Shown in pieces: positions 693-63,603 of a stretch of DNA of 64,000 nucleotides. The notes beneath the pieces were generated by a model. That model saw nothing but the letters and a program-made list of their open reading frames with translations. It searched no databases and was not told the origin of the DNA. Each line of letters begins with the position of its first letter. Position 1 is the first letter of the stretch. This DNA is from a virus, in the IMG/VR virus record IMGVR_UViG_3300030090_007211, positions 32,001-96,000 of that record; one strand, given 5' to 3'. A program made the translations under genes and the position numbers.

Positions 693-1529
693 TTAAAATG
701 CGACTAATTTATCGTTTTTCCACGCCTCATAATTAGGACCTAATTCATAGGTAATTGTTCTCCCATCTCTAACTGGTTTAACTATACCTGCATTTACTGC
801 CGCCCTAAAAAATGTTGAGTGTTGTCCAGATGTTCTCCCTTTAGAATTAATATATTCTAAAAATCCTGCTTTTGTTTTCTTAGGTTTATCTTGAATATAA
901 TTTATGAGTGATTGTATCATACCGTCTTTCTTTTCAAAGGTAAGTCCCGCAACCTTATTGAATATTTTTATTCCATTTTGTGCTGCAAAATTTTGAATGT
1001 TTTGTCTTATTTCATCATCAAAACCTCTACCCCATGTTTTTCCATATAAATTAGATACTAATTGTATTGCTTTCTTAGGGGGATTATTTGTAAAAATATA
1101 TTCTATTGCATCTTCTATTGACAATTGTATTCTTTCCAGTGTTTCATTTCCTGCAACTGCATCATCAAATAATCTATATATTTGAAATAACTCTGCTGCT
1201 TTTTGTGGGGGTGATAAATCAGATTCCATTACATCATCACTAAATTTTGATGCAATAGCATGTACATATCTTATATAAGGTCTAGGGTCAAATCCCCTAT
1301 AACCATATCGAATAAGATTATCTAAAAGTTTATACCCAATCATATGATATAAACTTTCATCTTCTATAACTTCCTCCACACTAAAACCATAGATATCTAC
1401 TAATAATGGGAATATATCTTCTAACTCAGAATTTTCAATCTGTTTATAAACCTTATCCATAAACACCTGATGTTTGGCGTTTTCCATCATTACTCTTCTA
1501 TGTTGTGATTCTGTTAATTTAATCTTCAT
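693..1529 (-). CDS. Leader-A protein with YG-domain-like N-region and C-terminal winged-HTH-like segment
   Basis: Likely start MKIKLTESQHRRVMME (internal Met 1529); FMDKVY...DIYGFSVEE; C-terminal STFFRAAVNAGIVKPVRDGRTITYEL resembles a wHTH wing. Confidence 0.7.
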   Translation of the reverse strand: MKIKLTESQHRRVMMENAKHQVFMDKVYKQIENSELEDIFPLLVDIYGFSVEEVIEDESLYHMIGYKLLDNLIRYGYRGFDPRPYIRYVHAIASKFSDDVMESDLSPPQKAAELFQIYRLFDDAVAGNETLERIQLSIEDAIEYIFTNNPPKKAIQLVSNLYGKTWGRGFDDEIRQNIQNFAAQNGIKIFNKVAGLTFEKKDGMIQSLINYIQDKPKKTKAGFLEYINSKGRTSGQHSTFFRAAVNAGIVKPVRDGRTITYELGPNYEAWKNDKLVAF

Positions 1530-1533
1530 AATA

Positions 1534-2784
1534 TTACGCACTCATTTCTAAATAATTATCTAAACTCTCCTCAAACCATTCTTTCGCTTTTGTAGTATCG
1601 GGGTAATAATAATCTAAATTAGGTAATTCTAACAACCCACTTTCTTCATCTAAGAGGGTTTTTACTACATCTATAAAATATGATTCTTGTTCTTCAGGAA
1701 ATACACCTTCTGTATCAATATAATGTTGTAATACCTTATCTATTAATTCAGTAGATATTGGTACCTTTAAATTGTATTTTGCACTATCCCCACTTTTAGT
1801 GTTTCTTACCCATTCTGGTTTACTACCAAATAACTCAGTAATTTCTTCCACTGCCCTCTCTCTTATATCATTTTCTACCACATCATTTATTGTGCTGTGG
1901 TATGCACTTCTCATATCCCTTTCTAATTCACCTAATTCATTGTGACTTAATAAAAATTCTAACACATCTTCTCCATCTACTTCATTATTTTTTATCTGTG
2001 TCCTTAATGTATTAATAAAAGTTGGGTTAATATCTAAGAAATCACCATCATCCCCTAAAACCTCTTCAGGCATACCCATTTCATATAAATCTTCTAATCC
2101 CTGACCACCAATCATAATTTTGTCTGTATATGCAGGAATAGATTCTATCACCTTATCCATTGCCTTTCCTGTCATATCTGATATTATCTCATCTCTAGGG
2201 GTATCCCAATAAGAAAAGAACTCACTAAAATCTTCACTAAATGCCTCTTCTGCTAAATCTCTATCATAAAATAATTCGGCGAAATCATCCCACCCATCAA
2301 TAGATAACACCATATTAGGATATAATCCTTCGGTGTCATTAAATGACATATTATCATAATAATTAAGTTTTATAGGTTTTTTATCATTATAATTTATTTC
2401 CCCAGTGTTAAACTTCTTATTAAACCAACCTAACTTTTTTAATATGTCATATATGGGACTATATTCTCTCCACCTAATAAACTCATCTATTTGGAATTCA
2501 CCAAATACATCCCCACCAACCTCATGATTCCAGTTAGACTTAGGGTCTAATGTCCACTTTATGAAAAAATATAAAACTACATCATAGTCTAACCCAACCA
2601 TTTCACCAAAATAAGTTAATACATCTGCAATGTTATCAAATCTAAAACCTGTTTTAAATGAATCATCATCTTCATCTCTCCATATTTTAAAAAACTCTCT
2701 ATTAAATAGACGAAACAACATGTTTTCTATTTTAGGGCTATCTTCAATAGTCTCTTTAATTATATGTTTAAATGTTAATTTCAT
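1534..2784 (-). CDS. Acidic hypothetical protein with leader-B-like start
   Basis: 416 aa, MKLTFKHIIKE; overlaps upstream gene's stop (operonic). Confidence 0.7.
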   Translation of the reverse strand: MKLTFKHIIKETIEDSPKIENMLFRLFNREFFKIWRDEDDDSFKTGFRFDNIADVLTYFGEMVGLDYDVVLYFFIKWTLDPKSNWNHEVGGDVFGEFQIDEFIRWREYSPIYDILKKLGWFNKKFNTGEINYNDKKPIKLNYYDNMSFNDTEGLYPNMVLSIDGWDDFAELFYDRDLAEEAFSEDFSEFFSYWDTPRDEIISDMTGKAMDKVIESIPAYTDKIMIGGQGLEDLYEMGMPEEVLGDDGDFLDINPTFINTLRTQIKNNEVDGEDVLEFLLSHNELGELERDMRSAYHSTINDVVENDIRERAVEEITELFGSKPEWVRNTKSGDSAKYNLKVPISTELIDKVLQHYIDTEGVFPEEQESYFIDVVKTLLDEESGLLELPNLDYYYPDTTKAKEWFEESLDNYLEMSA

Positions 2785-3002
2785 ACTTTTTGAAACATCT
2801 GATCCATTACTTGATAAATTGCGTCGATTACTGCATAAGAATCATAACCAAAATTATCTTTATGTGTTTCCACAATAGAACGAATGCAAGAATCTACATC
2901 TCTTTCTAGTCTTTCCCATTTATCGTATTTGTCTTCATAAGAATCTGCGAAATATTCATTTACAATTCTTTTATATTGACTTTCTGTTAATTTAATTTTC
3001 AT
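2781..3002 (-). CDS. Small leader-A protein
   Basis: MKIKLTESQYKRIVNE. Confidence 0.75.
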   Translation of the reverse strand: MKIKLTESQYKRIVNEYFADSYEDKYDKWERLERDVDSCIRSIVETHKDNFGYDSYAVIDAIYQVMDQMFQKV

Positions 3003-3252
3003 CACCCTCTTTTTTATTCATAAAGAAATCAAACACACTATCAATGTTTGTTTTAGATTCACTTATTTTATCATCCGCCCAATCATGTCCATCACATAAC
3101 ATATCATCAATCCATTGAGGATCAAAATCATTTAACATAATATCTATTTGTCTCCTCATTTGTTTAAGGTTACCAAAAAACATATAGTTTCTTTCTCTAG
3201 ACCCTTCTTTAATAATTTTTTTATATTGTTCTTCCGTTAATTTAATTTTCAT
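2992..3252 (-). CDS. Small leader-A protein (start corrected from 3354)
   Basis: Internal Met gives MKIKLTEEQYKKIIKE and removes overlap with upstream gene. Confidence 0.75.
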   Translation of the reverse strand: MKIKLTEEQYKKIIKEGSRERNYMFFGNLKQMRRQIDIMLNDFDPQWIDDMLCDGHDWADDKISESKTNIDSVFDFFMNKKEGDEN

Positions 3253-3256
3253 AGTT

Positions 3257-4084
3257 TTACCATTTTTTACATGACCAATAACGTGCTTTCCATTTAGGTC
3301 CGGGATTATCACAATTATGTCTAGCCCTAAAAGAACGTCTTTTATCGGGATCATTTTTCTTTATTCTTACCCCTTTTTGTCCAAAATCTACTTTTACAAC
3401 ATTATCTTTATCATTTTTAACATATACCTTAAATTTTTTAACGTCTCCCGCCATAGGTTTATTTAATTTTACTTTACGACCTTTATATTCCGCTTCTTCT
3501 AGTTGGGTGGATTCATTTTTACTTTTTTTAGATTTTTTTGCTTTTTTCCACAAATCTTCATCTGCTTTGCGTGCACCACCAGAACCAGTAATAAAAGAAT
3601 TAACTCTACCCATTGCCCACGCATTTTGAGGTGTTCCTGGTCTATGACCGCTGTTCCATGCAGCCATCCCTCTATTATATACTTGTTTTAAAATAGAAAA
3701 TGAAATACCACTATCTTTAGATTTATTTTTTAGTGCTTTATCACTAGTTTTAGATTCTACTATTGAATGTGATTCACCAAACATTTTTTCATATGCTTTA
3801 GTGGAAGCACTTTTTTTAGTTTTATATCTTTTTCCTTCTCCTCCTTTACCTGATTTATAATCTGCATCCCATTTAGTTTTATAGGTATCTTTACCAGCGT
3901 ATTTATTTATTTCTTTACGCATTGCAGATTTATTCTTCGTCAGGTACTTTTTAGGTATTTTCCTTTTCTTTTTTTTACCTTCACCTATAGGTTCTTCACT
4001 ACTAAATAGTCCTGTTGACTTCCCATCGAATCTCATTTCTTTTATTATCCTACGTAATTGATTCTCTGTTAATTTAATTTTCAT
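3257..4084 (-). CDS. Leader-A multi-module basic protein (DUF5824-like plus DUF6321-like modules)
   Basis: MKIKLTENQLRRIIKE; SGIS..ILKQVYNRGMAAW.SGHRPG...WAMGRVNSF module; C-terminal RSFRARHNC...ARYWSCKKW module; modules separated by x-x-E sites. Confidence 0.7.
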   Translation of the reverse strand: MKIKLTENQLRRIIKEMRFDGKSTGLFSSEEPIGEGKKKKRKIPKKYLTKNKSAMRKEINKYAGKDTYKTKWDADYKSGKGGEGKRYKTKKSASTKAYEKMFGESHSIVESKTSDKALKNKSKDSGISFSILKQVYNRGMAAWNSGHRPGTPQNAWAMGRVNSFITGSGGARKADEDLWKKAKKSKKSKNESTQLEEAEYKGRKVKLNKPMAGDVKKFKVYVKNDKDNVVKVDFGQKGVRIKKNDPDKRRSFRARHNCDNPGPKWKARYWSCKKW

Positions 4085-4118
4085 AACTATAGTTTACTAA
4101 TAAATAGTTTTAAAGCAT

Positions 4119-4144: not shown

Positions 4145-4174
4145 CTCTTTCACTCTTCACGATTCTACTATCTC

Positions 4175-5626
4175 TTACAAATATTTATGTAATTTCTCAA
4201 CAGTATCTATATCCCCCGCATCTAACGCATCATCAATTAAAGATTCTATTTCACGTTTAGACATTTCGGAATAATCAATCTCTCTCGGTTCTTCTTGTTG
4301 TGGAATAATAGGGTCTTCTACACCAGCGTCTACCATTAAATCATCCAACCCATCTTCAAAATTATCTTCATCACCCATAATAAAATCTTCCAATTCCTCA
4401 TCACTATCGGCTTCGTGTAATTCTTTTAAATGACTAATTACTTCACTACATTTACCACTTTGAGATAATATCTCTTTAATAAATTTCATAAATTTATCTG
4501 CGGGTAATTTAGTTAGTTCATGAAATAACCATTGTTTAATACTATAATCTTCAGGATCAATACATTCTACAAATTTTTCCCACATACCTGGTCCCAATCT
4601 CATACCCCAAATCTCACCTTCTATTGTATCTGCTCTTTGTATAACATGTTTCTGTTCTTCAAAGTCTAAATGACCTTCACCCCAATTAGATGCTGCTAAT
4701 TCCATAGAACCTTTAATTAATTCATGTACTAATAATGGGAATATCCACGCCTTCGCTTCAATTCTTGGTTCTAACTCTCGAGTATCTTTGGGCATTTCTA
4801 AATCTTCATCTTCTTCTCCTCCTTCATTTTCATCTCCTGCTTCTACCCATTTAATTTTTTCTGTACCACCAATTTGTCCGCCCATTGCTTGGTCAGGAAT
4901 TATCCAATACTGAAAATCTGCTAATGACATTAATTTACCATATAATCCCATTAATCTAGGATCAATTTGATCTAATTCATCTGCTACCATATGAAATATA
5001 TAATGTCCTTTTTTAGATGCCCCCTGCATTAATGCATTTATTATATTTCTTTTATCCACCTCAATTTCTAATTCTTCCATTCTTTCTGCACTCTGTGGTT
5101 GGAATTCTTCTGGTTCTTCTTCGTCTCCATCCTCTTCATCATTTTCCAAATCCAATGGGGATCCTGGAGGTAGTAATTCAGCGTCTAACATATCATCTGG
5201 AATATCAAATTCCTCACTCACGATGTCTATTGCTAATTGTTCTAACTCATCTTTATGTTGAGCTTCTATTTTAGCAACTTCTCCCATTATTCTCATCATT
5301 TCCATCATCATTTGTGGATTAACCTGATCAATTCCATGATATCTTTTAACTTTATTTATAATATCTTTAAATCTAGCACTTGCTAATTTTTCAGAATAGT
5401 TTTGATCATTACCTGTTACCGGTAAACCCTTACTTTTACCAAAGGTATGTCGACCTTGACGTAAACTATCTTCAATAGAAGGATTCATTCTTTCAGGATG
5501 TCTTTCATCATATTCTATTTGTTCGTTTAGTGAACGAATTCTATTTTGTTCCTTTTTAAGTAATTGGTGTTCGCTAATTACTCTTTTGGTGATATCACCT
5601 AATTTTATTACTATTTTCTTTTTCAT
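4175..5626 (-). CDS. Acidic hypothetical protein (putative virion/core protein)
   Basis: 483 aa; leader-like MKKKIVIKLGDITKRVISE, SLNEQ site; C-terminal IDDALDAGD (IDEAL/UVR-like hairpin). Confidence 0.65.
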   Translation of the reverse strand: MKKKIVIKLGDITKRVISEHQLLKKEQNRIRSLNEQIEYDERHPERMNPSIEDSLRQGRHTFGKSKGLPVTGNDQNYSEKLASARFKDIINKVKRYHGIDQVNPQMMMEMMRIMGEVAKIEAQHKDELEQLAIDIVSEEFDIPDDMLDAELLPPGSPLDLENDEEDGDEEEPEEFQPQSAERMEELEIEVDKRNIINALMQGASKKGHYIFHMVADELDQIDPRLMGLYGKLMSLADFQYWIIPDQAMGGQIGGTEKIKWVEAGDENEGGEEDEDLEMPKDTRELEPRIEAKAWIFPLLVHELIKGSMELAASNWGEGHLDFEEQKHVIQRADTIEGEIWGMRLGPGMWEKFVECIDPEDYSIKQWLFHELTKLPADKFMKFIKEILSQSGKCSEVISHLKELHEADSDEELEDFIMGDEDNFEDGLDDLMVDAGVEDPIIPQQEEPREIDYSEMSKREIESLIDDALDAGDIDTVEKLHKYL

Positions 5627-6305: not shown

Positions 6306-6926
6306 TTATTTTCTCGCGTTACAGAAAGCATCTGCTAATCCTGCTCTATAATGAAGTTTTTTACTATTACTTCTTCGAGCTTTGTCTATACAACCTTGAT
6401 CGCAACCATTTTTAAATCCATTATCTATACAATAATCTCTAAATGTCCCTTCAGTGCCGTCTTTTTCTATTTCGTCTGATACATCTTGCATCCAGTCTTC
6501 TTCTTCTTTTACAGTAATTGTAGTATCACTATCTTTAGGTAATCCTTTTTCTATTTCTAATGCTTGTGCGGCATCTTTAGCTTGAATAACTCCTTCATCT
6601 ACCACTACTTCATCAGCAACTTCGATATCCATATCTGGAGTTGATAGGTTTTGTGAAATATAATCAAACATTTGTTGACCATACACATCATAAAGCCTCT
6701 CAATTATTCTTTTAGGATTTTTCCTCATATATCTTAATACTGCTGGTGGAATTTCTTCACCATACTGACCGAATACACCTTCTATTTCTGCTTCTTTAGG
6801 AGATTGACGGTATTTAGATTTACTGTAAGTATCCTTCATTTCATGCTGCTCAAATAGATTTTCCATTATACCTCTTCTTACAGCTCTTTTAATTTCTGAT
6901 TCATAAATTTTAACCTTCTTTTTCAT
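6306..6926 (-). CDS. Leader-A-like hypothetical protein
   Basis: MKKKVKIYESEIKRAVRRGIME; Cys-containing C-terminal module. Confidence 0.65.
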   Translation of the reverse strand: MKKKVKIYESEIKRAVRRGIMENLFEQHEMKDTYSKSKYRQSPKEAEIEGVFGQYGEEIPPAVLRYMRKNPKRIIERLYDVYGQQMFDYISQNLSTPDMDIEVADEVVVDEGVIQAKDAAQALEIEKGLPKDSDTTITVKEEEDWMQDVSDEIEKDGTEGTFRDYCIDNGFKNGCDQGCIDKARRSNSKKLHYRAGLADAFCNARK

Positions 6927-9427: not shown

Positions 9428-10219
9428 TTAATTCTTTAAAAATCTAATAGATTCATCAAGGGTTAAAGATTTATCATAAGCTAAAGTTTCTAACTCACTT
9501 AACTTATCAAGGAATTCCATTCTTCGTAATACTTTAAATGCAATATTTTCAAAAGAATATTCCCCCTCTCTATCTAAACCTGCTTGTCTCATTTTTTTAA
9601 TTTTTTCTTTTAAAGTTTTAATAGATCTTATAACTTTATCGTATTCCGCCGTTTTATATAGTTTAAATGAATGTTTTATACTATCAACTAAAGAGTTCAC
9701 TTTTTGAGTTACTTTCTTTTCATCTATTTTTTTACTACCTTTTTCTGGTTTTACAACCCATCCATCCCACAATACTGAATAAACACCACTAGAAACATGT
9801 GGTTCGGTAGTATCTTGTACATATAATTCTACATCATAACCTTTTATGGTAATATTATGTTTTTCATTCCATAAATTCTTTTTTGAGTTAAAGTATTCTC
9901 TAACTAAATCTACATTTTCATCTACATCCTCAAACTTTAGTAAAATATGTAAATCTACATCTGAAAATCTAGACCAATTATAATTTGCTAAACTCCCCGT
10001 TAGAATAATATCATCAATATCAACCCACCCTATATCTAAAGTCTCAAAGAAATCGTCTGCAATCATTAACATTCTAGTTCTCACATCTCCATACATATGT
10101 TGTTCCGAATCAAAAATTTTAGGGTTTAATGTATTTCGTATTTTAAATGAAGAAAGATCAATTTCTTCTTTTTCTATAATATCATTAACATCTTGTTCTT
10201 TTAGTCTATTAATTTTCAT
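9428..10219 (-). CDS. Pol-beta-superfamily nucleotidyltransferase
   Basis: LTGSLANYNWSRFSDVDLHI (hG[GS]...DhD) and VELYVQD third acidic residue. Confidence 0.8.
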   Translation of the reverse strand: MKINRLKEQDVNDIIEKEEIDLSSFKIRNTLNPKIFDSEQHMYGDVRTRMLMIADDFFETLDIGWVDIDDIILTGSLANYNWSRFSDVDLHILLKFEDVDENVDLVREYFNSKKNLWNEKHNITIKGYDVELYVQDTTEPHVSSGVYSVLWDGWVVKPEKGSKKIDEKKVTQKVNSLVDSIKHSFKLYKTAEYDKVIRSIKTLKEKIKKMRQAGLDREGEYSFENIAFKVLRRMEFLDKLSELETLAYDKSLTLDESIRFLKN

Positions 10220-16039: not shown

Positions 16040-17911
16040 TTAGGTAACAGGAGAATTCTCCGCATTCTTTAATAATTGAGTGATTAATTTATCATAATTG
16101 CTCAGATCCTTACTACTTTTAAGAGTATTAGATAATCTTATTAAAGGTTTCAGTCCATATGATTTTGTCTTTGGCCAGTAAAACAGCTTATCTGCTTTTT
16201 TCCAAAACTTTTCTAATTCTGGTCTAATATCCCCAAACATATCTCCTTCTTTTCCTTTTTTATTATAAAATATATCATGTCTTCTTTGGTGTTTTTTATA
16301 ATCGTTTTTTAATATCGATTCTAAGTGGGTATAAATTGCTGGATTTAGATTTAATTCTTTAGAAGGTGCACCTAAAAAACTATTTTTAATTATATTTCTT
16401 ATATTTTTACTTGGTAATCTTAAATTTTCCCATACAGATTCAATATTTGCAGTTTTCTCTTTTAAACTATTACCTTTTATCCCTTTTAATATTTTATATA
16501 TTTCATTAACATCATCATTCAGTGAAGCAATATCGTTTAACAATAAAAGTTTAGTATCTGATCCTGGTTTTTTAAAATCATTACCTACTTTAATCTTATT
16601 AAAATTATAACGTTTTTTATCTTTTTCTTGTAAACTTAATTTTTTATCAAGTAATTTTTGTTGGTATTCCGAAAAGTTTGGGGACTTACCACCATCACTA
16701 TCAGGTAATATTTTAGTACCACATTGATTTAACACACAAATTAATCCACCTGCACTAGTCACATTTTGTAATTTAGTACCTTTAGTGAACACTTCTATTT
16801 TTTTACCATCTATATTATGTATTATTTCTATTGCTGGTAAATCTTTATGACATTTACCAGTGGTACAAACTGCCCAAATAGATACTTTTCCTTTATTCTG
16901 CGAGAATATTTGTTTAGATTGTGCGGGAGTAACTATAAATTTATCGCGTCGTACTCCTTTAATATCTCCACCACCACCATATTTTTTAATTCCGTTTTTA
17001 AGATTAGGATCCCCAAATCCAGGATTTAATAAATATGGATGTATTTTTACCCCTTTTCTAATTTTAATATTATCTAAGACAGTTGCTGCATTATTTAAAT
17101 TTGCGGTATTACCTCCTTGCGTATTAGTTAATAAAGTTTGGTTTGCAAAAACAAAATATTCTGCGTTATTACACTCATGACTAGGAACACCAAAAATTAT
17201 TTCTAACCCTTCTAAACATTCTGGATTATCTTCATTTACTGTTTTACTTTTAACCTCCTCTTTTATCTTATCAACATTGATTGCCACACTTAAAAATTGT
17301 TCTGAGGTATATTTTTCTTTTAAGGTTTTGTAATTAGGTGATCTCCTATATGCGGAACCACATTTATAACCTTCAGGATCACTTCCCCTTTCGTTTTCTG
17401 GACAAAAAGATTGACCTACCCATTTAGTGTCACCAATTTTAGGTGGAGACACATTAAAATTAATTTTATCTTTTATAATACCTTCTTTAACCCAAGAATT
17501 AAAAACATTTTGAATGTAAGTTTTTATAGTATTCATTCTATTTGTTGATAAGTGTCCAGGTTTTACTTTTTTACCATTTTGTTCTCTATCTACATTAGGT
17601 ATTTGAGATTCGCCTGCAGCTAAATTTACATTTACTACAAACCCTGTTGGATTTTTAATTAAGAAGTTTTTGATTTTTTGTAATTCAGGATTTAGTGTTT
17701 TTTCTACATCCCAACTCCATTTAGTGCCGCTTTTACCTGTATAATCGCCTTTCGGTCTATAAAAACCAGGACCGAATTCTACTGATTTATTAATGGTGGG
17801 GAGAGTATTAGTTTCTTCAGTTAATAGTGGATTTTTATATTCACCATTTTCGTAGATCATTAATCCACGCATTCTTTTTAATTCTTCCGTTAGGGTTAAT
17901 CTATTTTTCAT
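16040..17911 (-). CDS. Leader-C protein, paralog of 33290..34750; degenerate OmpA_C-like plus Cys/His domain
   Basis: MKNRLTLTEELKRMRGLMIYENGEYKNPLLTE; GESQ...LSTNRM; HECNNAEYFVFAN...ANLNN...C...CH shared with paralog. Confidence 0.65.
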   Translation of the reverse strand: MKNRLTLTEELKRMRGLMIYENGEYKNPLLTEETNTLPTINKSVEFGPGFYRPKGDYTGKSGTKWSWDVEKTLNPELQKIKNFLIKNPTGFVVNVNLAAGESQIPNVDREQNGKKVKPGHLSTNRMNTIKTYIQNVFNSWVKEGIIKDKINFNVSPPKIGDTKWVGQSFCPENERGSDPEGYKCGSAYRRSPNYKTLKEKYTSEQFLSVAINVDKIKEEVKSKTVNEDNPECLEGLEIIFGVPSHECNNAEYFVFANQTLLTNTQGGNTANLNNAATVLDNIKIRKGVKIHPYLLNPGFGDPNLKNGIKKYGGGGDIKGVRRDKFIVTPAQSKQIFSQNKGKVSIWAVCTTGKCHKDLPAIEIIHNIDGKKIEVFTKGTKLQNVTSAGGLICVLNQCGTKILPDSDGGKSPNFSEYQQKLLDKKLSLQEKDKKRYNFNKIKVGNDFKKPGSDTKLLLLNDIASLNDDVNEIYKILKGIKGNSLKEKTANIESVWENLRLPSKNIRNIIKNSFLGAPSKELNLNPAIYTHLESILKNDYKKHQRRHDIFYNKKGKEGDMFGDIRPELEKFWKKADKLFYWPKTKSYGLKPLIRLSNTLKSSKDLSNYDKLITQLLKNAENSPVT

Positions 17912-18015: not shown

Positions 18016-18657
18016 ATGAAAAAGTTAATCACATTATTATTAGTATTAGTAACCTTAAATGGTTATAGTCAGACACCTATCGATTATGATAATTTTGATA
18101 GAGAAATTGCGGAATACCATTTGAGGAAGACATTTATACATTTTAGAGATACAATAAGTAAAATGGGGTATGGTAAAGATAGGTTTATTTTATATCCTGA
18201 ATTAGTGAAAGATAAAAGTTTAGATATACCTATTTGGTCGGATAAAGTTTATGAATTAATCTCTAAACATAATTGTGATATTTTAACTAACATAAAAGAC
18301 GATGTTTATCATGTAGATAGAGAAAAATGGTGGAAAGATCCTAAAGTACAAAAATTATTTGTAGAAGAAAAATATAAACACATCGAGGATGAAAAAATTA
18401 GAGAATCCATAACTGAAGTAGGTTATAGTGAAAATGCTTTATTTACTACTAAAAAATTTACTACTTATGAAGAATTAGCTACCGCCCTAATAAACCAATG
18501 GGAAAATTCCTATTATCATAAATGTTTACAAAGAAGAAATATGTTTTGCACCTATTTATATCGTTCCCATAATATAATAGTTAAAGATTTATTTGCGTGT
18601 AGCGTAACTTATAACCCATCCACTAAATGTGTACATAGTGTTATAAATTTTATTTAA
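18016..18657 (+). CDS. Secreted CAP/SCP-like protein
   Basis: Signal peptide MKKLITLLLVLVTLNGYSQ; SENA...YEELA...NQWENSYYH CAP-like motifs. Confidence 0.6.
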   Translation: MKKLITLLLVLVTLNGYSQTPIDYDNFDREIAEYHLRKTFIHFRDTISKMGYGKDRFILYPELVKDKSLDIPIWSDKVYELISKHNCDILTNIKDDVYHVDREKWWKDPKVQKLFVEEKYKHIEDEKIRESITEVGYSENALFTTKKFTTYEELATALINQWENSYYHKCLQRRNMFCTYLYRSHNIIVKDLFACSVTYNPSTKCVHSVINFI

Positions 18658-20023
18658 ACATATCTTGTTGGATATCCGCTACTCTTTGTTGGTTGGGATC
18701 AATATTTAAAGTGACCCATATATCTCTAATTACATATTCTCCAGTGCCAGAATTACCTGTAATAAATGGTCGAGACCCACTTTCCATTACCCTATAATTA
18801 TTTTCTTGATTTGAAGTAGTGTTAGTCCATCCTTTGAAAATTAAAGGGGATCCTTGAGGACATTTTATTATCATACCCCCACTAGATATTTCACCTTTTC
18901 CATTTGAACTCCCATTCATTGTCCCACCTTTTCTTAGACCAATTTTAAGATTAGGGTCAATTTGTATTAAATGTTTTTCTTTAACAACTATATTACCGTC
19001 TTTTTTCGTTGCTGGGATAATCCCTGGTTCATAACCTTCTATTTGACCATCTACATATTTACTCCAATCTAAATAAGTTTCATAAGATTTTTTATCTTCT
19101 TCCTCATTATCAGGAGTTGGTGTAACATCATTATTAGGTATAGTATCTTTTATTGTTTTTTCCCACTTAGGAAACTTAATTTGGAATCTTCTATTAGGTG
19201 CTGTTTCTTCGTGTGTTGGACTACTAGTATTAGTCCACCCCGCATCTGCAAATAAAGTTGTTTCTCCATTACCCACACCCTTTAGTAAACCTTTTAATTC
19301 TGGTATTTCATCAGATAATAGTTTTACCATTTTATCTGCCCGCGCTTGAGATAAACATCTGTTATAATCTCCTCTTAAAATACCATCTTCATCTTTACAC
19401 CCACTAAATTTACCAGTTATTGAGACATTAGGGTCATTATCTCTGGAAGCGTACCCATTTAAAATAATAGGTGAATTTTTTTTCAAAAATTCTATATATT
19501 CTCCCCATTGAGGTCCATAAGTTTCTTTATTTTTATTCCATTCAGACACAAATTTTCTAAAATTAATATTCCCAACATCTGTTAACTCGGTTTTATCAAA
19601 TATAAATGGATCACTTATATCTAATGTTAATTCTAAACTTACTGTTTTTTCTTTTGGTGGTGGTGGTGTTGGCGGTGGTGTTCCTCCCCCTAACAAACGA
19701 GGTGCCTTAGAAGCGAGAGAAATATATAGAATTGAGCGTCGACTCAAAGTATCACCTGAAACAAACTTTCTATTTCTGAATCTAGCAAATTTTGGTATTT
19801 TTGACATTTTCGATTGCTCAATACCATTAAAGAGTAAATCACCCTTTCTTTTCCTCCCCCAAAATGGAATGGTAGGTGGTACCCAATCTCTACCTTCTTG
19901 ATCTAATTGACCATTTTTTTGTTCTTTAATATTTTGTTCTGCCAAAACATCATGTGAATTATCCTCATAGGTAAACCCCATAAGTTCTTTCATACGCTTT
20001 TGTTGGGAAGTTAGTGGTTTCAT
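18650..20023 (-). CDS. Leader-C protein with OmpA C-terminal-like peptidoglycan-binding domain
   Basis: QKRMKELMGF leader; Pro linker; F.FDK.EL, GYAS, YN.CLSQARA, G.G.GET, NRR. Confidence 0.75.
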   Translation of the reverse strand: MKPLTSQQKRMKELMGFTYEDNSHDVLAEQNIKEQKNGQLDQEGRDWVPPTIPFWGRKRKGDLLFNGIEQSKMSKIPKFARFRNRKFVSGDTLSRRSILYISLASKAPRLLGGGTPPPTPPPPKEKTVSLELTLDISDPFIFDKTELTDVGNINFRKFVSEWNKNKETYGPQWGEYIEFLKKNSPIILNGYASRDNDPNVSITGKFSGCKDEDGILRGDYNRCLSQARADKMVKLLSDEIPELKGLLKGVGNGETTLFADAGWTNTSSPTHEETAPNRRFQIKFPKWEKTIKDTIPNNDVTPTPDNEEEDKKSYETYLDWSKYVDGQIEGYEPGIIPATKKDGNIVVKEKHLIQIDPNLKIGLRKGGTMNGSSNGKGEISSGGMIIKCPQGSPLIFKGWTNTTSNQENNYRVMESGSRPFITGNSGTGEYVIRDIWVTLNIDPNQQRVADIQQDMFK

Positions 20024-20032: not shown

Positions 20033-20194
20033 TTATTTTCTTCGTGATACTGGTTTTCTTGAAACCTTCTTAGGTTGTCTTGATTCTTTAATTGCTTTTC
20101 TTTTAGTAGTTTTAACTTCGTTTACTATTTTCTCTATTAGATCAACCATTTCACTTTCAGTTAACCTAATTACTTTTTTATTTTCTTTAGACAT
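20033..20194 (-). CDS. Leader-only basic microprotein (53 aa, not in track)
   Basis: MSKENKKVIRLTESEMVDLIEKIVNEVKTTKRKAIKESRQPKKVSRKPVSRRK; late motif at 20261. Confidence 0.75.
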   Translation of the reverse strand: MSKENKKVIRLTESEMVDLIEKIVNEVKTTKRKAIKESRQPKKVSRKPVSRRK

Positions 20195-22151: not shown

Positions 22152-22430
22152 TTAAATCGAATTAATTAACAAATTTAAACGCACTGATTTGGAATTTATT
22201 TTTTCCATCACCGATAAAAACACTTTTCTATCATTTTCTTTGTCTGTAATACGGTACTTTATTTCATCAATTAATTTAAATTCACCTATGTTATTTAATT
22301 CATCTAAAATACTATCATAGGTTAACCATTGGCGTTTAGTATCTGCGCCTGCACCATTTATTTTTTCAAACACAAACATTTTATAATTATAATCTAATTC
22401 TCTCTCTATAGGTAATTTTTCCTTATTCAT
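22152..22430 (-). CDS. Hypothetical protein
   Basis: 92 aa, coupled to upstream gene. Confidence 0.6.
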   Translation of the reverse strand: MNKEKLPIERELDYNYKMFVFEKINGAGADTKRQWLTYDSILDELNNIGEFKLIDEIKYRITDKENDRKVFLSVMEKINSKSVRLNLLINSI

Positions 22431-45271: not shown

Positions 45272-45574
45272 CTATTTACACATTTTATCTATCTTCATTT
45301 TTCCTACACCTTTATAACCACTTTTATAAATAACATTTTGTTTTAGACATGCACAAATCTCTTCTTTAGTGGTATCTATTTCCTTAACATTTTTCATGTT
45401 AACAATTATGTTATTCCAAAACTCATCCCAACTTTTTGTTTTACCATTATTATCTCCTATGGTATTAATGTCGTTATAATATTCTTTTGATGTATCGCAT
45501 TGATGTGTATCTTCTGTGATAACCCTTTTTACTATACGTTGAATGTCTGATTCTTTTAATTTAATTACTTTCAT
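45272..45574 (-). CDS. Leader-A small Cys-containing protein
   Basis: MKVIKLKESDIQRIVKRVITE. Confidence 0.72.
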   Translation of the reverse strand: MKVIKLKESDIQRIVKRVITEDTHQCDTSKEYYNDINTIGDNNGKTKSWDEFWNNIIVNMKNVKEIDTTKEEICACLKQNVIYKSGYKGVGKMKIDKMCK

Positions 45575-46317: not shown

Positions 46318-47157
46318 TTATTCAGTTTTTAATACAACAAACCAATAGTTACCAACTTTAACAATATCCGACATTGCCTCATATCCATACTTATTTTTCA
46401 TATCGGTTAATCTTTGATTTAAATTATCTTCGGAGGGATCAAATATACCACTAATACCAGTAGTTGTATCACCATCTTTAGAAATAGTAATAGTATTCCC
46501 ATCTATAGTTGCATTACCATAATTATCTTTAGGTAACGCTAATAACTGATCTCTCGCATCTCCCAAATCATTAAATGTTATGGTAATGGGTTTTGATTTG
46601 TTACCACCACAGTGAGATTGATAATTAGGGTTTTTCCATTGGGCAAAATATTCTACTAACCCTTCAGGTGTTTTTTTCATATCACTAATATCTAAACTTG
46701 TACCTTTAGTTGGTAGGTGACCTACCTCATCTTTAAGGTGGTCTAACTTATATCCTTCACCATGACCCCAACCTCCTCTACGATCAAAAGAAGTGTATGC
46801 ATCACATGCATTGTTAACCTGAATAAAAGGTATGTCTACTTTAAATTCTACTTGTCCGGTATTATTATCTATTCTATTCCCTAATGTTTTATCTATAATA
46901 GTCTCTAATTTAATCCCATCTAAATCCACTATTGTCCATTGTCCCTTATTATATAACTTTTTTAATTCGTCCCCAACTATAGTAGTGATAGTATTAATAA
47001 ATCTATGTGTGTTATCATTAGGGTTTTGGGAAGGACCAATATAGGTACCACTCACACCATTACTACTAATATTGATGGAGGGAGAAGATTGTTCACCTAA
47101 TAATCTTTTATTGGCTTCCTCTATTAACTGTCTTTTTAATTTCCCTAGTCTACTCAT
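46318..47157 (-). CDS. Leader-D protein
   Basis: MSRLGKLKRQLIEEANKRLLGEQ. Confidence 0.75.
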   Translation of the reverse strand: MSRLGKLKRQLIEEANKRLLGEQSSPSINISSNGVSGTYIGPSQNPNDNTHRFINTITTIVGDELKKLYNKGQWTIVDLDGIKLETIIDKTLGNRIDNNTGQVEFKVDIPFIQVNNACDAYTSFDRRGGWGHGEGYKLDHLKDEVGHLPTKGTSLDISDMKKTPEGLVEYFAQWKNPNYQSHCGGNKSKPITITFNDLGDARDQLLALPKDNYGNATIDGNTITISKDGDTTTGISGIFDPSEDNLNQRLTDMKNKYGYEAMSDIVKVGNYWFVVLKTE

Positions 47158-47171: not shown

Positions 47172-47678
47172 CTATATTAATTTTACTTTTACCCCATTAC
47201 TGTTGGTTAAGGTAATAGGTTTGTCTCCCTCTATGGCTTTTGCAATACCGGTTCGTGTGTCTTTATTTTTATCTGTATGAATAGTAAATACTATTCTATC
47301 ACTGCTCGTTACCCCACCTGAAATAAATCTATAATCAATACCTTTTTGTTGCATGGCAGTTTTCGCTTTTGATAAACGGGATTTAACAATACTACCAGTC
47401 CCGTATGTTAATTTTATTTTTAATTGTAAATAATCATTTGGGACTAACTTAATAGATTCTATATTTGGGTTAAAGGTTCGACCATCCGCAATTATTTGTA
47501 GTTTATATGAGTGTGCAATATCTTTTTCTTGGGATGTAACCATTATACTATTATCTCCCCCTAAAGGAACTTTTACTATTGTAGTATCTGAAGGTATTTC
47601 ATCTATTCTCTGTTCACCCAATATCCTTTTATTGGCTTCCTCTATTAACTGTCTTTTTAATTTTCCTAGTCTACTCAT
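47172..47678 (-). CDS. Leader-D protein
   Basis: MSRLGKLKRQLIEEANKRILGEQ; cargo unrelated to neighbour's. Confidence 0.75.
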   Translation of the reverse strand: MSRLGKLKRQLIEEANKRILGEQRIDEIPSDTTIVKVPLGGDNSIMVTSQEKDIAHSYKLQIIADGRTFNPNIESIKLVPNDYLQLKIKLTYGTGSIVKSRLSKAKTAMQQKGIDYRFISGGVTSSDRIVFTIHTDKNKDTRTGIAKAIEGDKPITLTNSNGVKVKLI

Positions 47679-48585: not shown

Positions 48586-49263
48586 TTAAAATTTTCTACG
48601 TTTTTTCTGTAAATCATCCATCATATCATGTGGTTGATCCCACCAACCATCACCTTTCTTTCTGAACTCATCTTCACTTTTTCTATTACCCTCTTTATCC
48701 ACATCCACTAATTTGATTCTTCTATGTTGTCCACCTGAAAAATCTGAATTAACTGCAATATCATTTATTTTTTGTTTATAGTCTGCAAACAATTTTTGTA
48801 TATTCTTTTTAAATTCTACTGTAAGTTTTTCCGCTTCTTCACTATATGTTTTTACACTATTAATTGCTTCTTCTATATCATATAGTTCATAATCACCTTT
48901 ATCTCTATCAGTATGTGCCAATTTTTCAGTTTTGGGATTATAATAAGGTGTATAGTATCCTTCTTTTTGTTCTTCACTATGATTTAATAAATCATATGAT
49001 ATATAATCAGGATGAGAGTCATCACCAAAAGAACCATGCCCCCTACTTTCTATGTCTCTTTCACTAACACCTGCGGAAAAATTCCACGCTTCAGGATTCA
49101 ACCGAAAGTATATACGTTTTTTTATTTCTGGGATATATGTACTCCAACCATATTTAGATTTTGCAATATGTAGTTCTGTATCTGGTGATCTATTAATCTC
49201 TGGCGATGTTAAATCATCAGGATTAAATTCTTCTTTAAGTATCTTTTGTATAATATGTTTCAT
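48586..49263 (-). CDS. Leader-B protein
   Basis: MKHIIQKILKEE. Confidence 0.72.
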   Translation of the reverse strand: MKHIIQKILKEEFNPDDLTSPEINRSPDTELHIAKSKYGWSTYIPEIKKRIYFRLNPEAWNFSAGVSERDIESRGHGSFGDDSHPDYISYDLLNHSEEQKEGYYTPYYNPKTEKLAHTDRDKGDYELYDIEEAINSVKTYSEEAEKLTVEFKKNIQKLFADYKQKINDIAVNSDFSGGQHRRIKLVDVDKEGNRKSEDEFRKKGDGWWDQPHDMMDDLQKKRRKF

Positions 49264-49265: not shown

Positions 49266-50249
49266 TTAACTCATTGCATGATGATGGTGCATAAAATATT
49301 CGTAAGGGATATAACCGATATATTTTCTACGATAATAATTATTATTAAACACATCTTTTATTATGTTAACTCCTTTAGAACCTGAGGCATGAATCATATC
49401 TACTTTATTACCATCTCTATTATGGACAAATCCTGTGTGTCTTGCGTTTTTACCTCTACCGGATCTCCCAAACAATAAAATATCTCCTTTTTTGGTTTCG
49501 CCCCAATTCTTTTTTCCTTTTCTAAATCCTTTTTCTCTCAATAGACTTCCCGTAGTATCACGACCAGGAGAATCTAATTCCTCAACGTGCCTAAATGTCC
49601 AATCTACTAACCCACTACAATCTCCACCTTCACCATCAAACTCGTCTCCCCACTTATATGGTTCCCCTAATCTTTCTTCTGCAGTTTTTACAATTTTATC
49701 CCCAATAGTTAAATCTACTTCTTCATGATCATAAACACCATCACTTTCTTCATCATCATATTCAATTTCATGGTGCTCTACCTCTTCCTCATCACTTACT
49801 ACTCCTTCTTCTACTGAATTAATTAATTCTTCTACCCCTTTATCATGAAACTTAGCTTCTTTAGTGATTTCCTCATATAATTTGGTATAGGTGTGTGGTC
49901 CTACAATTTTATCCCATTCCATTGAATCTTTAAATACGTCTTTTTGAAATTTCAGAACCGCATCAGCAGTATCAGGACCATATACCCCATCTATTCCATG
50001 TGGTCCAACATCATATCCTAATGCAACCAACATTTTTTGAACTCTTTTTACATGACTTTTTTCATTAGATTTATATCTTTTTAAATATCTACCGTCAATA
50101 TCTCTTTGCCATTCATCCGCATTTTTACTTAAACTTTGATTGGCTGCGGTGGCAACACCACCTATCGTCTTACCTAATTTACTAATAATACTTTCATCTT
50201 CACGTAAGATTATTTTCTTAAATTGGCTTTCCGTAATTTTAATTAACAT
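49266..50249 (-). CDS. Leader-A PG-binding plus NlpC/P60 endopeptidase
   Basis: MLIKITESQFKKIILRE; VQKML..LGY....IDGVYGP.T..AV..FQ; LG.PY.WG...DCSG...GDILLF...HTG...IHAS. Confidence 0.9.
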   Translation of the reverse strand: MLIKITESQFKKIILREDESIISKLGKTIGGVATAANQSLSKNADEWQRDIDGRYLKRYKSNEKSHVKRVQKMLVALGYDVGPHGIDGVYGPDTADAVLKFQKDVFKDSMEWDKIVGPHTYTKLYEEITKEAKFHDKGVEELINSVEEGVVSDEEEVEHHEIEYDDEESDGVYDHEEVDLTIGDKIVKTAEERLGEPYKWGDEFDGEGGDCSGLVDWTFRHVEELDSPGRDTTGSLLREKGFRKGKKNWGETKKGDILLFGRSGRGKNARHTGFVHNRDGNKVDMIHASGSKGVNIIKDVFNNNYYRRKYIGYIPYEYFMHHHHAMS

Positions 50250-50332: not shown

Positions 50333-50965
50333 ATGTTAACCAAAATCAATCTACTTTCTATAATATTAATAATTGTCTTGGGGTGTGAAAAAGACAAACC
50401 TTCTAATCAGGTGACGACACCAACATATACCTATAATATCTTATTACAACCCTTAGATGATAAAATAAGTGAAGTTTACTTAACCAGTGCAGAAAGAAGC
50501 TTAAAAGAGTATTTTCCGGAAGTTACCATAAAGGTGGCAGAACCTCTTGTTTTACCTGATAAATGTTTTAATGGGAAAAGATATAGGGCTGATTCCATTA
50601 TTAGATATTTGAGGTCTATAAAGACTAACGAATATCAAACTATTGTGGGTATAACCTCCCAAGACATTTCCAATACTAGAACATTAACTAAAAATGGAAA
50701 GAAAATAGTTTATGATGATTATGGGATTTTAGGGTTGGGGTTTAAACCGGGTCCTAGCTGCGTTATTTCTTATTACAGAATGGCTCGCAATATTCCTATG
50801 TTTAGTAGGACTGTGGTTCATGAATATATGCATACTTTGGGTGTACCTCATTGTGAACATAAACATTGTTTGATGCAAGATGGGAAAGGTTCAGGAAAAA
50901 ATATGAGAGAATCTACCCACGTACATGCAGAGTGTAAACACATCGCACTAAAAGGATTACATTAA
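50333..50965 (+). CDS. Archaemetzincin-like (M54) Zn metalloprotease lipoprotein
   Basis: Lipobox VLGC; HEYMHTLGVPHCEHKHCLM; promoter TTTG(50277)-N20-TATATTTG(50301). Confidence 0.8.
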   Translation: MLTKINLLSIILIIVLGCEKDKPSNQVTTPTYTYNILLQPLDDKISEVYLTSAERSLKEYFPEVTIKVAEPLVLPDKCFNGKRYRADSIIRYLRSIKTNEYQTIVGITSQDISNTRTLTKNGKKIVYDDYGILGLGFKPGPSCVISYYRMARNIPMFSRTVVHEYMHTLGVPHCEHKHCLMQDGKGSGKNMRESTHVHAECKHIALKGLH

Positions 50966-52470
50966 GTAATTTGAACACCGAATTCTTTAGTTAACGAAGA
51001 AGGGGATGGACAAAATTCATCTTGTCCCACACCACCTAATTTTATAAAGTAATCTCCTTCTTTTCCAGGTTCTACTTTTACTAAATAATCTTTAGGGTTT
51101 TCAGACATTAAAAATACTTGTGTCCCTATGTTTGCCATTGCTTGTACTTTTGGGTTTTGAATGAATTGTGGATCCACATTAAAACATCCAGCACTTAAAT
51201 CATATTTGCTTGTCATACTTTCTACTGCCTCAATATATTCTGGTGGAATATTTCCGTATTGTAAATCCTTTTTTAATAATTTACTTAATTCTGCATCTGC
51301 TACCAATCTATTTTTGACAGGTACTATTGCATGTATTGCAGTACCTAAATCCACTCCATCAAGTGTACCTAATCCCAATGTGTTAGGTATACCTTTTTTA
51401 CCCCTATAACCTTTTTTATAATATTTACTATTGATTTTATAAATACCTGGTGCTTGATATCGTTTATGTTTTTTGGCGAGAATAGAATAATTATATACTT
51501 TTCCTTTAGTATATTCTGGTTTATCTGAAGCAACCGAGTTACTTGAAACTATATTCCCTTTTACACAGGTTTTTATAAATTTTTTATTCTTTAATCGAAT
51601 TGCTTTCCATTCCCCTCCTGATAATTGACACCATTCTGCACGTGTAAATACTACATCTTGTTGTTTATCTGCACTAGCAACCGATTGGGAATAATCAATT
51701 AATTTATAGTCTTTAGTAAATGCTAACACTAAATTTAAACGTGGATCCACAATAAAAAATGGTTTACCATTATTTGCGTTTCTCACTTGTATATAAGCTA
51801 ATTCCTTATTAATTCTATCTGCGCCTGGTACAGTATCTTTTACTGCAAATCCTCTCTCAATAGCATCTTTTTTATCTTTAACATAATCCCAATAAGTTGG
51901 ATTATTATAACGATTAAATATAGAATATAAATTTTCACCATCTACAATATAATTTAATGCGGTTAAAATATATTTATTATCATGTTTACCCTTCGGATCT
52001 AATTTCAATTTCTCCGCAATTTTTTTATATTCATTATTAACAAATTGTCTAAATTTATTACCTTCTATTGTATTTTTAAAAGGTGAAACAACAATTCGTT
52101 CATCACCAGAAATGTTTTTATAATTTCTTAATAAGTTAGCTCGTCTACCACCAATTGGTGCGGTTTTCTGATTTGATTGGTGTTTAGTATCTACCTCCAT
52201 AGAAGTTAGGGTTTCAGGCCCCACTATCCCATCAATCTTTAATTTATTTTTACTCTGGTAATCTCTAACTGCCTTATAGGTTTTATCTCCATATTTACCA
52301 TCTACACCATCTTTATTAGGACCAGAAGTCCCCAAATCATACCCATTATTTTTTAAAATTTGTTGTATTTCTTTTACTTTTTCTCCTTTACTACCTCTTT
52401 TATAAAGAGTTGTTGTCTGCTCTTTAAGTATTAATTTTTTAAATTGACTTTCTGTTACTAATATTTTCAT
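50962..52470 (-). CDS. Leader-A PG-binding plus L,D-transpeptidase-like (YkuD) protein
   Basis: MKILVTESQFKKLILKE; GSKGEKVKEIQ...DGKYG..T..AV..YQ...DGIVGPET; AIHA...SAGCFN. Confidence 0.78.
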   Translation of the reverse strand: MKILVTESQFKKLILKEQTTTLYKRGSKGEKVKEIQQILKNNGYDLGTSGPNKDGVDGKYGDKTYKAVRDYQSKNKLKIDGIVGPETLTSMEVDTKHQSNQKTAPIGGRRANLLRNYKNISGDERIVVSPFKNTIEGNKFRQFVNNEYKKIAEKLKLDPKGKHDNKYILTALNYIVDGENLYSIFNRYNNPTYWDYVKDKKDAIERGFAVKDTVPGADRINKELAYIQVRNANNGKPFFIVDPRLNLVLAFTKDYKLIDYSQSVASADKQQDVVFTRAEWCQLSGGEWKAIRLKNKKFIKTCVKGNIVSSNSVASDKPEYTKGKVYNYSILAKKHKRYQAPGIYKINSKYYKKGYRGKKGIPNTLGLGTLDGVDLGTAIHAIVPVKNRLVADAELSKLLKKDLQYGNIPPEYIEAVESMTSKYDLSAGCFNVDPQFIQNPKVQAMANIGTQVFLMSENPKDYLVKVEPGKEGDYFIKLGGVGQDEFCPSPSSLTKEFGVQIT

Positions 52471-59829: not shown

Positions 59830-59859
59830 ATATAAATATAATATAATAAAATTAAAGTG

Positions 59860-60985: not shown

Positions 60986-61013
60986 ATTAATAAATATAAA
61001 GAAATATACTTAC

Positions 61014-61229: not shown

Positions 61230-61289
61230 ATTTATATTTTTTATATAATATTATTTTATATATATAAATATGAACAAAATATTATTTTG

Positions 61290-62649: not shown

Positions 62650-62842
62650 CTTTTTTCCATAAATCTAATGTCCACAAAACTGATTCTATAAAATATAAAA
62701 CACCAACCATTATCATCCCATAATGTGTCCAACTACCTTGATGCCCATAAGTAATATCTTGATATATAGAAGGGATTGCAGACCCCATAATTGAGATACT
62801 GAAGAGTAATTTTACCCATTTATTATCTAAAAACTTTTTCAC
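62642..62842 (-). CDS. Small two-TM membrane protein
   Basis: 66 aa. Confidence 0.6.
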   Translation of the reverse strand: MKKFLDNKWVKLLFSISIMGSAIPSIYQDITYGHQGSWTHYGMIMVGVLYFIESVLWTLDLWKKDE

Positions 62843-62856
62843 TATAATAAATAAAT

Positions 62857-63105
62857 TTAATTATATGCGTAAAGTGCTTCTTCATGTACTTCTTTAACGC
62901 CCTCAACCGTTTCAAATCTTTCAGCGTTATATCCTTGCCAGGGTAAACCATATTTAGTTCTACCTAAATTTCTCACACCAACTAACATATAGGCTCTTTG
63001 ATCGAAAGTATTGACAAACGCTTCTCTCACTACGTAAATCTCTCCTTCAATTACTTCTGCACCTGCAGGTAATTGTTTATCATTTATACAAACTACTTTT
63101 TTCAT
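62857..63105 (-). CDS. Hypothetical SH3-like protein
   Basis: KVVCIND...EG.IY.V...Y.L...Y.A.RF. Confidence 0.6.
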   Translation of the reverse strand: MKKVVCINDKQLPAGAEVIEGEIYVVREAFVNTFDQRAYMLVGVRNLGRTKYGLPWQGYNAERFETVEGVKEVHEEALYAYN

Positions 63106-63603
63106 CTATTTTTTAGATTTCTTCTTTTTCTTACTAGTTCGTTTATTTAATTGACAATCAGAAATCGTTTCATAAACACAATTTGTGCTATCATATTTCA
63201 AGTTACCACCTTTTTGATCATCATCACATTGATGTTTGAATTTACCATTCTTACATTTTTTACAACACATTGGTGATCTTCCTAATTTAGCTTCGTAAGA
63301 TCCTGGTTTAGGATATCGATTAGGGTCATCAGGATCATATGGATCATATGGATCAGGGTTATCTTCTTCATATGGATCCGGATAATCATCATCGTCTTGT
63401 GATAATACTAACGCTGTTGGTGTAACATATGCCCCCGCACTGGCAGTGCTAGTTCCCCCTCTTGCGATATTGTTAGATGTGGTAGGATTAGAAGGAGGAG
63501 TAGGTGTTTGTTCTTGTAAAGACTCTTTTTTACTCTCTTCTTCTATTACTTGTTGTATAATACGATTTAATTGACTTTCAGTTAATTTTATTGTCCTTCC
63601 CAT
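63106..63603 (-). CDS. Leader-A low-complexity/Cys-rich protein
   Basis: MGRTIKLTESQLNRIIQQVIEE; DPY repeats; CCKKC; late motif at 63620. Confidence 0.72.
   Translation of the reverse strand: MGRTIKLTESQLNRIIQQVIEEESKKESLQEQTPTPPSNPTTSNNIARGGTSTASAGAYVTPTALVLSQDDDDYPDPYEEDNPDPYDPYDPDDPNRYPKPGSYEAKLGRSPMCCKKCKNGKFKHQCDDDQKGGNLKYDSTNCVYETISDCQLNKRTSKKKKKSKK

Follow-up and report, generated by a model that had tools for sequence, protein, structure and literature searches.

Why would some 30 genes of one phage contig, most of whose products are otherwise unrelated, begin with the same few short peptides? The question is raised by the window studied here, 64,000 nt of DNA from IMG/VR virus record IMGVR_UViG_3300030090_007211 (bases 32001-96000 of a 151,931-bp contig), in which many predicted proteins share N-terminal leaders. 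A sequence-only reading of the window had sorted these leaders into four classes, A to D, and had proposed a multi-class code that sends cargo proteins into the capsid, where the leaders are cut off as in phage T4. We think it probable that the leaders are an expanded, multi-variant form of the T4-style capsid-targeting and processing tag; the part of the proposal that makes each class a separate address is not supported.

The contig has a guanine-plus-cytosine (GC) content of 30%, is about 46% complete according to CheckV, and codes almost wholly on the minus strand. Coordinates in the earlier reading are therefore the low (stop-codon) ends of the open reading frames (ORFs). Four starts were corrected: the genes at 693, 2781, and 2992 begin at 1529, 3002, and 3252, and the gene at 38161 probably begins at 39039. 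All leader genes of the window described below are on the minus strand. The phage is an uncultured jumbo phage of flavobacterial type, and its signal peptides, which end in "SQ" or "AQ", suggest a host in the Bacteroidota; a megablast comparison of 20 kb with cultured phages gave zero matches.

Leaders shared by unrelated proteins

The ORFs listed in the sequence-only reading all exist, and their N-termini read as it stated. To delimit the families, small profiles were made from window leaders sliced out of translated ORFs, and every ORF of the 152-kb contig was then scanned with them. The class A profile matched 14 proteins (E <= 1.3e-7; next match 0.038), class B four (E <= 1.4e-6; next 0.2), class C three (E about 2e-14; next 0.096), and class D five (E <= 1.7e-15; next 0.37), so that members are set off from all other proteins by a wide gap in E value. 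Every significant match, in all four classes, lies within residues 1-40. A degenerate class A regular expression run over six frames gave 17 matches, all on the coding strand and 16 at the start of an ORF. The looser copies proposed at 4175, 6306, 28234, 32848, 1534, and 7327 did not reach significance (best E 0.14), and the class C list held in part: the proteins at 16040, 18650, and 33290 are found by the profile, whereas that at 32194..32841, whose resemblance was by eye only, gave no match.

The excess of similarity is at the N-termini. Pairs of N-terminal 30-mers scoring at least 35 numbered 95 on this contig, versus 11 for residues 31-60 and 16 for C-termini. The same count gave 184 versus 25 in a 269-kb relative, G002, and 19 versus 8 in Tenacibaculum phage PTm1, a same-GC control that has no leader families; thus, composition does not explain the leaders. 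Judged by sequence, the cargos are mostly unrelated to one another. When the first 35 residues were left out, BLAST found a sole homology, between the proteins at 49266 and 50962, via a common PG_binding_1 domain; the class C proteins at 16040 and 33290 also look like distant paralogues when their orthologues are aligned. Sec and lipoprotein signals, defined as a hydrophobic core of at least 10 residues after a basic start, were not seen among the leaders, which are charged throughout, and the true signal-peptide and lipoprotein genes of this genome form a separate N-terminal cluster. No prior description of the leader motif was found in a full-text literature search of incomplete coverage, and ESM Atlas look-ups with one leader and with the protein at 693 gave sub-threshold leads only.

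Several observations indicate that the peptide is what is conserved. Codon choice at the conserved positions of class A follows genome-wide usage: TCA, AGT, AGC, and TCC all occur for Ser, ACA, ACG, and ACT for Thr, and AGA, AGG, and CGT for Arg. The DNA upstream of leader genes is not conserved and varies by gene, and several of these genes abut the preceding one, as if translationally coupled, without any promoter-like motif. Because synonymous codons vary and upstream DNA is unconserved, selection acts on the peptide rather than on the DNA. The protein at 693..1529 (278 aa; class A, profile E 3.3e-10), encoded directly upstream of TerL, illustrates this: orthologues with only 33-39% identity vary at just one of the first nine residues, and the following 170 are very divergent. 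These results bear on the suggestion that the shared N-termini have no function at the protein level and instead reflect AT-rich composition, plain paralogy, or the spread of mobile cassettes for regulation or translation start. MK-rich, A-rich starts are indeed common in Bacteroidota genes, and the two pairs just named, one apparently paralogous and the other with a common domain, fit the paralogy version, but free variation of synonymous codons around fixed residues, differing upstream DNA, the PTm1 control, and leaders that stay invariant in orthologues at 33% identity largely refute it, and we give it next to no credence.

Leaders of this type are widespread. A DNA pattern for M-K-x-x-x-T-E-S-Q-x-K, scanned over IMG/VR contigs, was found in more than 119 of them. 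Among the matches listed, all contigs have 24-38% GC, all matches lie at ORF starts, and there are 107 non-redundant cargos, with conservation fading after residue 15-16. Three large contigs have 4-7 strict matches each (0 with a reversed control pattern), and two of the three encode a protease 49-50% identical to the head maturation protease of this phage. The strict pattern is absent from Flavobacterium phage vB_FspM_immuto (MW353177.1; hereafter immuto), PTm1, Pelagibacter phage HTVC008M, and one 642-kb huge phage. A 22-residue leader used as tblastn query found no match, probably owing to its shortness.

A denser set of leaders is found in G002 (268,739 bp), in which a roughly 40-kb island of small same-strand genes at 121-172 kb carries a leader on nearly every gene. 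There are at least five kinds, MKIIITESQ, MKKIVKLTESDL, MNLQENIxRIKEMMGL, MNLQESIRRILKEE, and MGKRFIITEEEKKxILGLYE, and the island is denser in leaders than the window. Immuto, which is cultured, has three leader-like N-terminal families of 2-4 members each (MKKSQLRQIIKE, FDLKKFLVENKLT, and QILSEQFKRMQ, also written MKKSQLRQIIKE, (M)ENFDLKKFLVENKLT, and MKKQILSEQFKRMQ), mostly inside its structural region. Two of its leader-like genes lie just upstream of TerL; one of these is annotated as a cob(I)alamin adenosyltransferase and may be a mis-annotated tagged cargo. A radical-SAM partner (PF04055) is absent from this contig (G000) and from genomes G001 and G003, and only a sub-threshold match was found in G002.

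Interchangeable leaders and an invariant glutamate

Despite their differences, the leaders end alike. As the earlier reading had noticed for nearly all of them, they close in hydrophobic-x-Glu; this holds for every core member of the window. In class A the motif ends at residues 7 and 16-17 in 9 of 12 proteins and as late as residue 26 in the variants at 20033, 45272, and 63106; in class B it ends at residue 11, in class D at residues 13-14 and 21-25, and in class C at about residues 21-32. In this contig and in G002, two hydrophobic residues followed by x-Glu are 2-3 times as frequent at residues 9-24 as in protein interiors.

Comparison of orthologues shows that a cargo can keep its body and exchange its leader. 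The protein at 22427..23245 joins a class A leader to a SleB-type cell-wall hydrolase (Pfam Hydrolase_2). Most of its 22 orthologues also have class A leaders (MKIIITENQLKKIIL.E), two have class B-like leaders, and one has another kind; before the cargo domain, the only invariant residue besides Met1 is the Glu of L-x-E (E16). In the AlphaFold2 model of this protein, the predicted local distance difference test score (pLDDT) is above 90 for the body and about 50 for residues 1-20, where a short helix (7-15) is followed by a break (16-18); the leader ends LLNE/D (a slash here and below marks a known or candidate cut). The family of the 168-aa class D protein at 47172..47678 is divided by alignment into halves with class D and class A leaders, the same cargo being joined at (I/L)-x-E-Q, with the closing Glu (E22) at least 90% conserved. 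In the family of the 486-aa class C protein at 33290..34750 (profile, alignment), a leader of about 32 residues runs to an invariant I-x-E (E32), and one orthologue has instead a "FLITESEKNKIRSLY" leader of the "FxITExEK" class, which is abundant in G002. Thus, classes A, B, C, and D and still other kinds replace one another on the same orthologous cargo, which argues that they are equivalent; the proposed four separate addresses find no support. On the preferred explanation, the leader variants are functionally equivalent modules that become joined to one cargo or another by recombination.

T4-type head genes and the case for capsid targeting

The genes just outside the left edge of the window form a T4-type head module: they encode TerL, a gp20-type portal (phrog_213), a head maturation protease (phrog_207), a scaffold-like protein, and a gp23-type major capsid protein. 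The protease (contig 26496-27188) matches phrog_207 with E 3.3e-42 and the T4 gp21 structure (PDB 5JBL) with E 1.3e-19. It has His and Ser at positions that are Ala in the crystallized T4 protein, which we take to be the two catalytic positions of gp21. The scaffold-like protein, encoded between protease and capsid protein, has 542 residues and is acidic and repeat-rich. The capsid protein has LLNE/A 11 residues before the block TVVFPIVRR, which matches a block of T4 gp23 (PAVMGMVRR) that lies 27 residues after the FLTE/A cut; the site is conserved in G002, whose capsid protein has LINE/A at the corresponding position. G002 (rated complete) has two separate head modules, one at about 25-36 kb and the other at 224-238 kb; a terminase, a portal, a gp21-like protease, a scaffold, and a capsid protein are encoded in both. 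Identity between the protease of the second module and that of the present phage is 41%. The doubling could reflect true duplication, a resident satellite, or chimerism of the assembly.

In T4, a capsid-targeting sequence (CTS) on the internal proteins IPI, IPII, and IPIII, and on Alt, is removed by the prohead protease gp21. The internal proteins of T-even phages are diverse and have only a conserved CTS in common, and for T4 it is already established that diverse injected proteins carry this conserved CTS and that foreign proteins can be packaged with it (PMC3012670). T4 IPII and IPIII start MKTYQEFIAE/A (NC_000866), and class B leaders here read MKxIIxKILKE/E; in both phages a short N-terminal peptide that starts MK and ends hydrophobic-x-Glu is found on diverse proteins. 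The likeness extends to the surroundings: a gp21-family protease and gp20/gp22/gp23-type head genes are in the same genome, cargos turn over between related phages, and the capsid LLNE/A falls roughly where gp23 is cut. Gene order is also alike. T4 has 20-67-68-21-22-23, with prohead-core genes 67 and 68 in the slot between portal and protease; in close relatives of the present phage this slot holds a 90-102-aa gene with a class A-like leader (their version of the gene at 32848), and in immuto it holds a 73-aa gene starting MKKSQIVKAVQEVLEE.

A T4-like tag is the best available explanation for what is observed: modular leaders, an invariant closing Glu, T4-type head genes, and a gp21-type protease. 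Under the proposed mechanism, the basic amphipathic peptide of 11-32 residues would bring its protein into the assembling prohead core, the gp21-type protease would then remove it after the closing hydrophobic-x-Glu, and the freed cargo would remain in the head and exit with the DNA at infection; core binding, packaging, cleavage, and ejection are all predictions from the T4 analogy. Compared with T4, the system would be much enlarged: about 30 tagged genes per 152 kb versus 3-4, at least 4-5 leader families of 11-32 residues versus one 10-mer, and enzyme-sized cargos, peptidoglycan hydrolases among them, in a phage that probably infects Bacteroidota and is known from sequence.

Other systems offer partial parallels. 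In the giant phages phiKZ, 201phi2-1, and SPN3US, many head-internal proteins are cut at x-x-Glu by a T4-related protease, and much ejected protein is packaged. Their cut sites follow a Ser/Ala/Gly-x-Glu rule, and their propeptides are long and are not known to be a shared short tag, whereas here the tag recurs as a module and the third residue before the candidate cut (P3) is hydrophobic, as it is in T4. Encapsulins, whose shell has the HK97 fold, take up unrelated cargo by means of a short terminal loading peptide that is transferable from protein to protein, but these peptides are usually C-terminal, bind the shell directly, and stay uncleaved, with no scaffold core and no protease. The payloads of the Photorhabdus virulence cassette (PVC), an extracellular contractile injection system, also have transplantable N-terminal leaders that mark diverse proteins for a phage-like particle, although those leaders are disordered, have about 50 residues, load the tail tube, and have no tie to a capsid protease.

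Several points weigh against capsid targeting. Class A leaves the point of cleavage ambiguous, with candidate sites at residues 7 and 16. The Glu is followed by D, Q, E, N, M, or V, versus the usual Ala, Ser, or Gly of T4, and hydrophobic-x-Glu is a weak motif in a proteome rich in Lys, Glu, and Ile. The leaders have no detectable sequence homology to the T4 CTS MKTYQEFIAE; the agreement is in length, in charge pattern and MK start, and in the ending of two hydrophobic residues, x, and Glu, and was read by eye, 10 residues being too few for an alignment statistic. Roughly 30 cargo species, some of 500-600 residues, go far beyond anything known for T4, and some of the leader-like genes of immuto sit in its replication/metabolism region. 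The promoter link that had been proposed is likewise unsupported: of 225 genes, 75 have TA(T/C)TTAT in the 80 nt upstream, and although head genes and about half of the leader genes are among them, so are the ClpC-like gene and many other genes without leaders. What remains of the original proposal is therefore the leaders, their hydrophobic-x-Glu ends, the gp21-type protease, and the T4-type head module, without separate class addresses, the promoter link, or the loose copies.

We considered other roles that a shared N-terminus could play. The leaders could be uncleaved docking or oligomerization helices that bind some other common partner, such as a tail or baseplate, a membrane or cell-wall complex, or each other. 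A strand-plus-helix shape such as the one predicted here is typical for docking peptides, phage fibers and polymorphic effectors commonly join a conserved N-terminal adaptor to variable C-terminal domains, and one protein, at 32848, has two tandem cores. Docking would leave unexplained, however, why only the closing Glu of hydrophobic-x-Glu persists across class changes; in addition, the leaders are much shorter than known fiber adaptors, no tail genes are recognizable beside leader genes, and neither the match to the T4 CTS format nor the leader genes in the gp67/68 slot would be put to use. We consider this role unlikely. Non-Sec export, or a lysis-timing signal that brings peptidoglycan enzymes and other proteins to or across the inner membrane, has in its favor that at least four cargos bind or cut peptidoglycan and have no signal peptide, and that there was no leaderless endolysin among the proteins scanned, a set that did not cover the whole contig for endolysins and holins. 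However, the leaders, which are charged and amphipathic, have no hydrophobic core, genes with true signal peptides or lipoprotein signals cluster apart from them, and most cargos have no envelope-related domain, which makes an export signal a far-fetched alternative.

The ClpC-type AAA+ unfoldase of this phage suggests two further roles. As tags for this enzyme, the leaders could be degrons for timed removal or chaperone handles. The phage encodes both the ATPase (at 13564-16035) and an Hsp20, the leader-rich relatives G001 and G002 encode homologues of the ATPase with 57-60% identity close to their head modules, and immuto and PTm1 have none. Yet the homologues in G001 and G002 match only from residue 144-162, in open frames of 673-674 aa, and seem to lack Clp_N; immuto has leader-like families without this ATPase; the co-occurrence extends to three genomes only (the present contig, G001, and G002); and the invariant hydrophobic-x-Glu is again unexplained. 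A role as degrons or handles is thus quite unlikely. Alternatively, the leaders might be handles for ATP-driven loading, in which the unfoldase, specific to this lineage and encoded near the head module, would recognize the leaders and unfold large cargos or feed them into the prohead, or pass them on to its core, before the protease clips the tag. If true, this would explain both the packing of 500-600-residue enzymes and the presence of the ATPase in leader-rich genomes, and we give it a slim chance. Capsid targeting of the T4 type, with removal of the leader by the prohead protease, is the reading that we prefer.

Tagged proteins and their possible uses

Class A is the largest family in the window. 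In the protein at 693..1529, helices are followed by a conserved C-terminal part of about 90 residues that is modeled by AlphaFold2 as a winged helix; Foldseek found no match at E <= 0.001 and weak winged-helix matches (SmtB, SSV1 F-93, and linker histone H1) for this part, from which the protein may be a DNA-binding head protein. Identification of the same protein as the small terminase was dropped, though not disproved: Pfam and PHROGs are blank, Foldseek gave no match at that threshold, and the slot is empty in the syntenic G002. Also in class A are proteins of 73 aa at 2781..3002 (profile E 1e-11; hydrophobic-x-Glu at residues 7 and 16) and of 86 aa, from an internal ATG, at 2992..3252 (regular expression and strict DNA pattern), followed at 3257..4084 by a class A leader joined to small DUF5824 and DUF5754 domains (Pfam, class A profile). 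The 53-aa protein at 20033..20194 has a class A-like core at residues 10-26 that was found by regular expression, the ORF being absent from the profile-scanned set. The 541-aa protein at 20500..22125 (profile) resembles, over residues 80-314, a protein of Pseudomonas phage PA5oct annotated as structural. Other members are a 182-aa protein at 24256..24804 (profile E 4.5e-9), a 100-aa protein at 45272..45574 with the variant KLKESDIQRIVKRV (profile E 1.3e-7), which is common in G002, and a 165-aa protein at 63106..63603 whose leader begins at residue 3 (profile E 5.3e-9). Two more, identified by domain match and profile, are at 49266..50249 (PG_binding_1 plus an NlpC/P60 peptidase domain) and 50962..52470 (PG_binding_1; 502 aa).

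Class B comprises proteins of 359 aa at 25489..26568 (profile E 1.4e-6; hydrophobic-x-Glu ending at residue 11), 174 aa at 28449..28973, and 225 aa at 48586..49263, the latter two by profile, and a leader joined to DUF4314 at 26905..27399 (domain match, profile). In class C, besides the protein at 33290, are those at 16040..17911 (623 aa; profile and alignment), probably its distant paralogue, and 18650..20023 (457 aa; profile E 1.7e-14); a resemblance of class C cargos to OmpA is unsupported by Pfam at E <= 0.01. Class D, besides the protein at 47172, includes proteins of 104 aa at 37831..38145 (profile E 1.4e-15), 143 aa at 40888..41319, and 279 aa at 46318..47157 (both by profile), and a PG_binding_1 protein at 38161..39039 (domain match, profile) whose start is probably a GTG at 39039.

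Among the loose resemblances, read by eye and not significant by profile, are a conserved 483-aa protein of the TerL-proximal block (4175..5626) and a class A-like start conserved in relatives (KIYESEIKRAV; 6306..6926). The 131-aa protein at 32848..33243 has two tandem class A-like cores by regular expression (profile E 0.14), and a nucleotidyltransferase-like protein at 9428..10219, outside the original list, has a weak class A-like start (regular expression) and weak Pfam matches. Outside the window, tandem proteins of 290-417 aa (contig 127833-131825 and 141269-143572) have very short T4-CTS-like starts, MKFLDILNE, MKIIEILYE, MIKFTQILEE, and MKLFKLIKEE, that all four class profiles missed.

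As had been stated, ThyA, two methyltransferases, and a sigma factor have no leader, nor do the ClpC-type ATPase, Hsp20, and a GH16 enzyme. The ATPase (window 13564-16035, plus strand) is a double-AAA+ protein of 821 aa with Clp_N, two AAA domains, a UVR motif, ClpB_D2-small, and a VGF loop at 683-685; the Hsp20 gene is at 12040-12501 on the minus strand.

Four cargos (at 22427, 49266, 50962, and 38161) have peptidoglycan-binding or hydrolase domains. None of them has a signal peptide, nor does any other cargo with a recognizable domain (26905, 3257, and 20500). Wall-acting cargos with no export signal would fit delivery by ejection. Two further kinds of cargo recur behind class A leaders in IMG/VR. 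One, of about 499 aa (start ...ESGIRDI..KRYKKAKIYFHQDL), is present at loci L021, L070, L071, L091, L101, L121, L126, and L138 and has 38-45% identical homologues in the 630-640-kb "huge phage" genomes LR756502.1 and LR745206.1, in which the match begins only at query residue 8-9. The other kind comprises proteins of 50-180 aa with a zinc-ribbon-like CxxC...GW.W...GG motif (e.g., loci L029, L042, L061, L118, and L120).

If the leaders are capsid-targeting tags, a 15-residue motif would provide a cheap listing of the first-wave effectors of a large group of uncultured Bacteroidota phages, which would include cell-wall breachers and, probably, anti-defense proteins. Because the cultured relative immuto carries related tags, the idea is directly testable. 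Protein delivery by phage capsids in hosts other than E. coli would gain several short loading tags of natural origin. The three-protein trick of T4 would here have grown to more than a tenth of the genes of a genome, with freely swappable tag variants.

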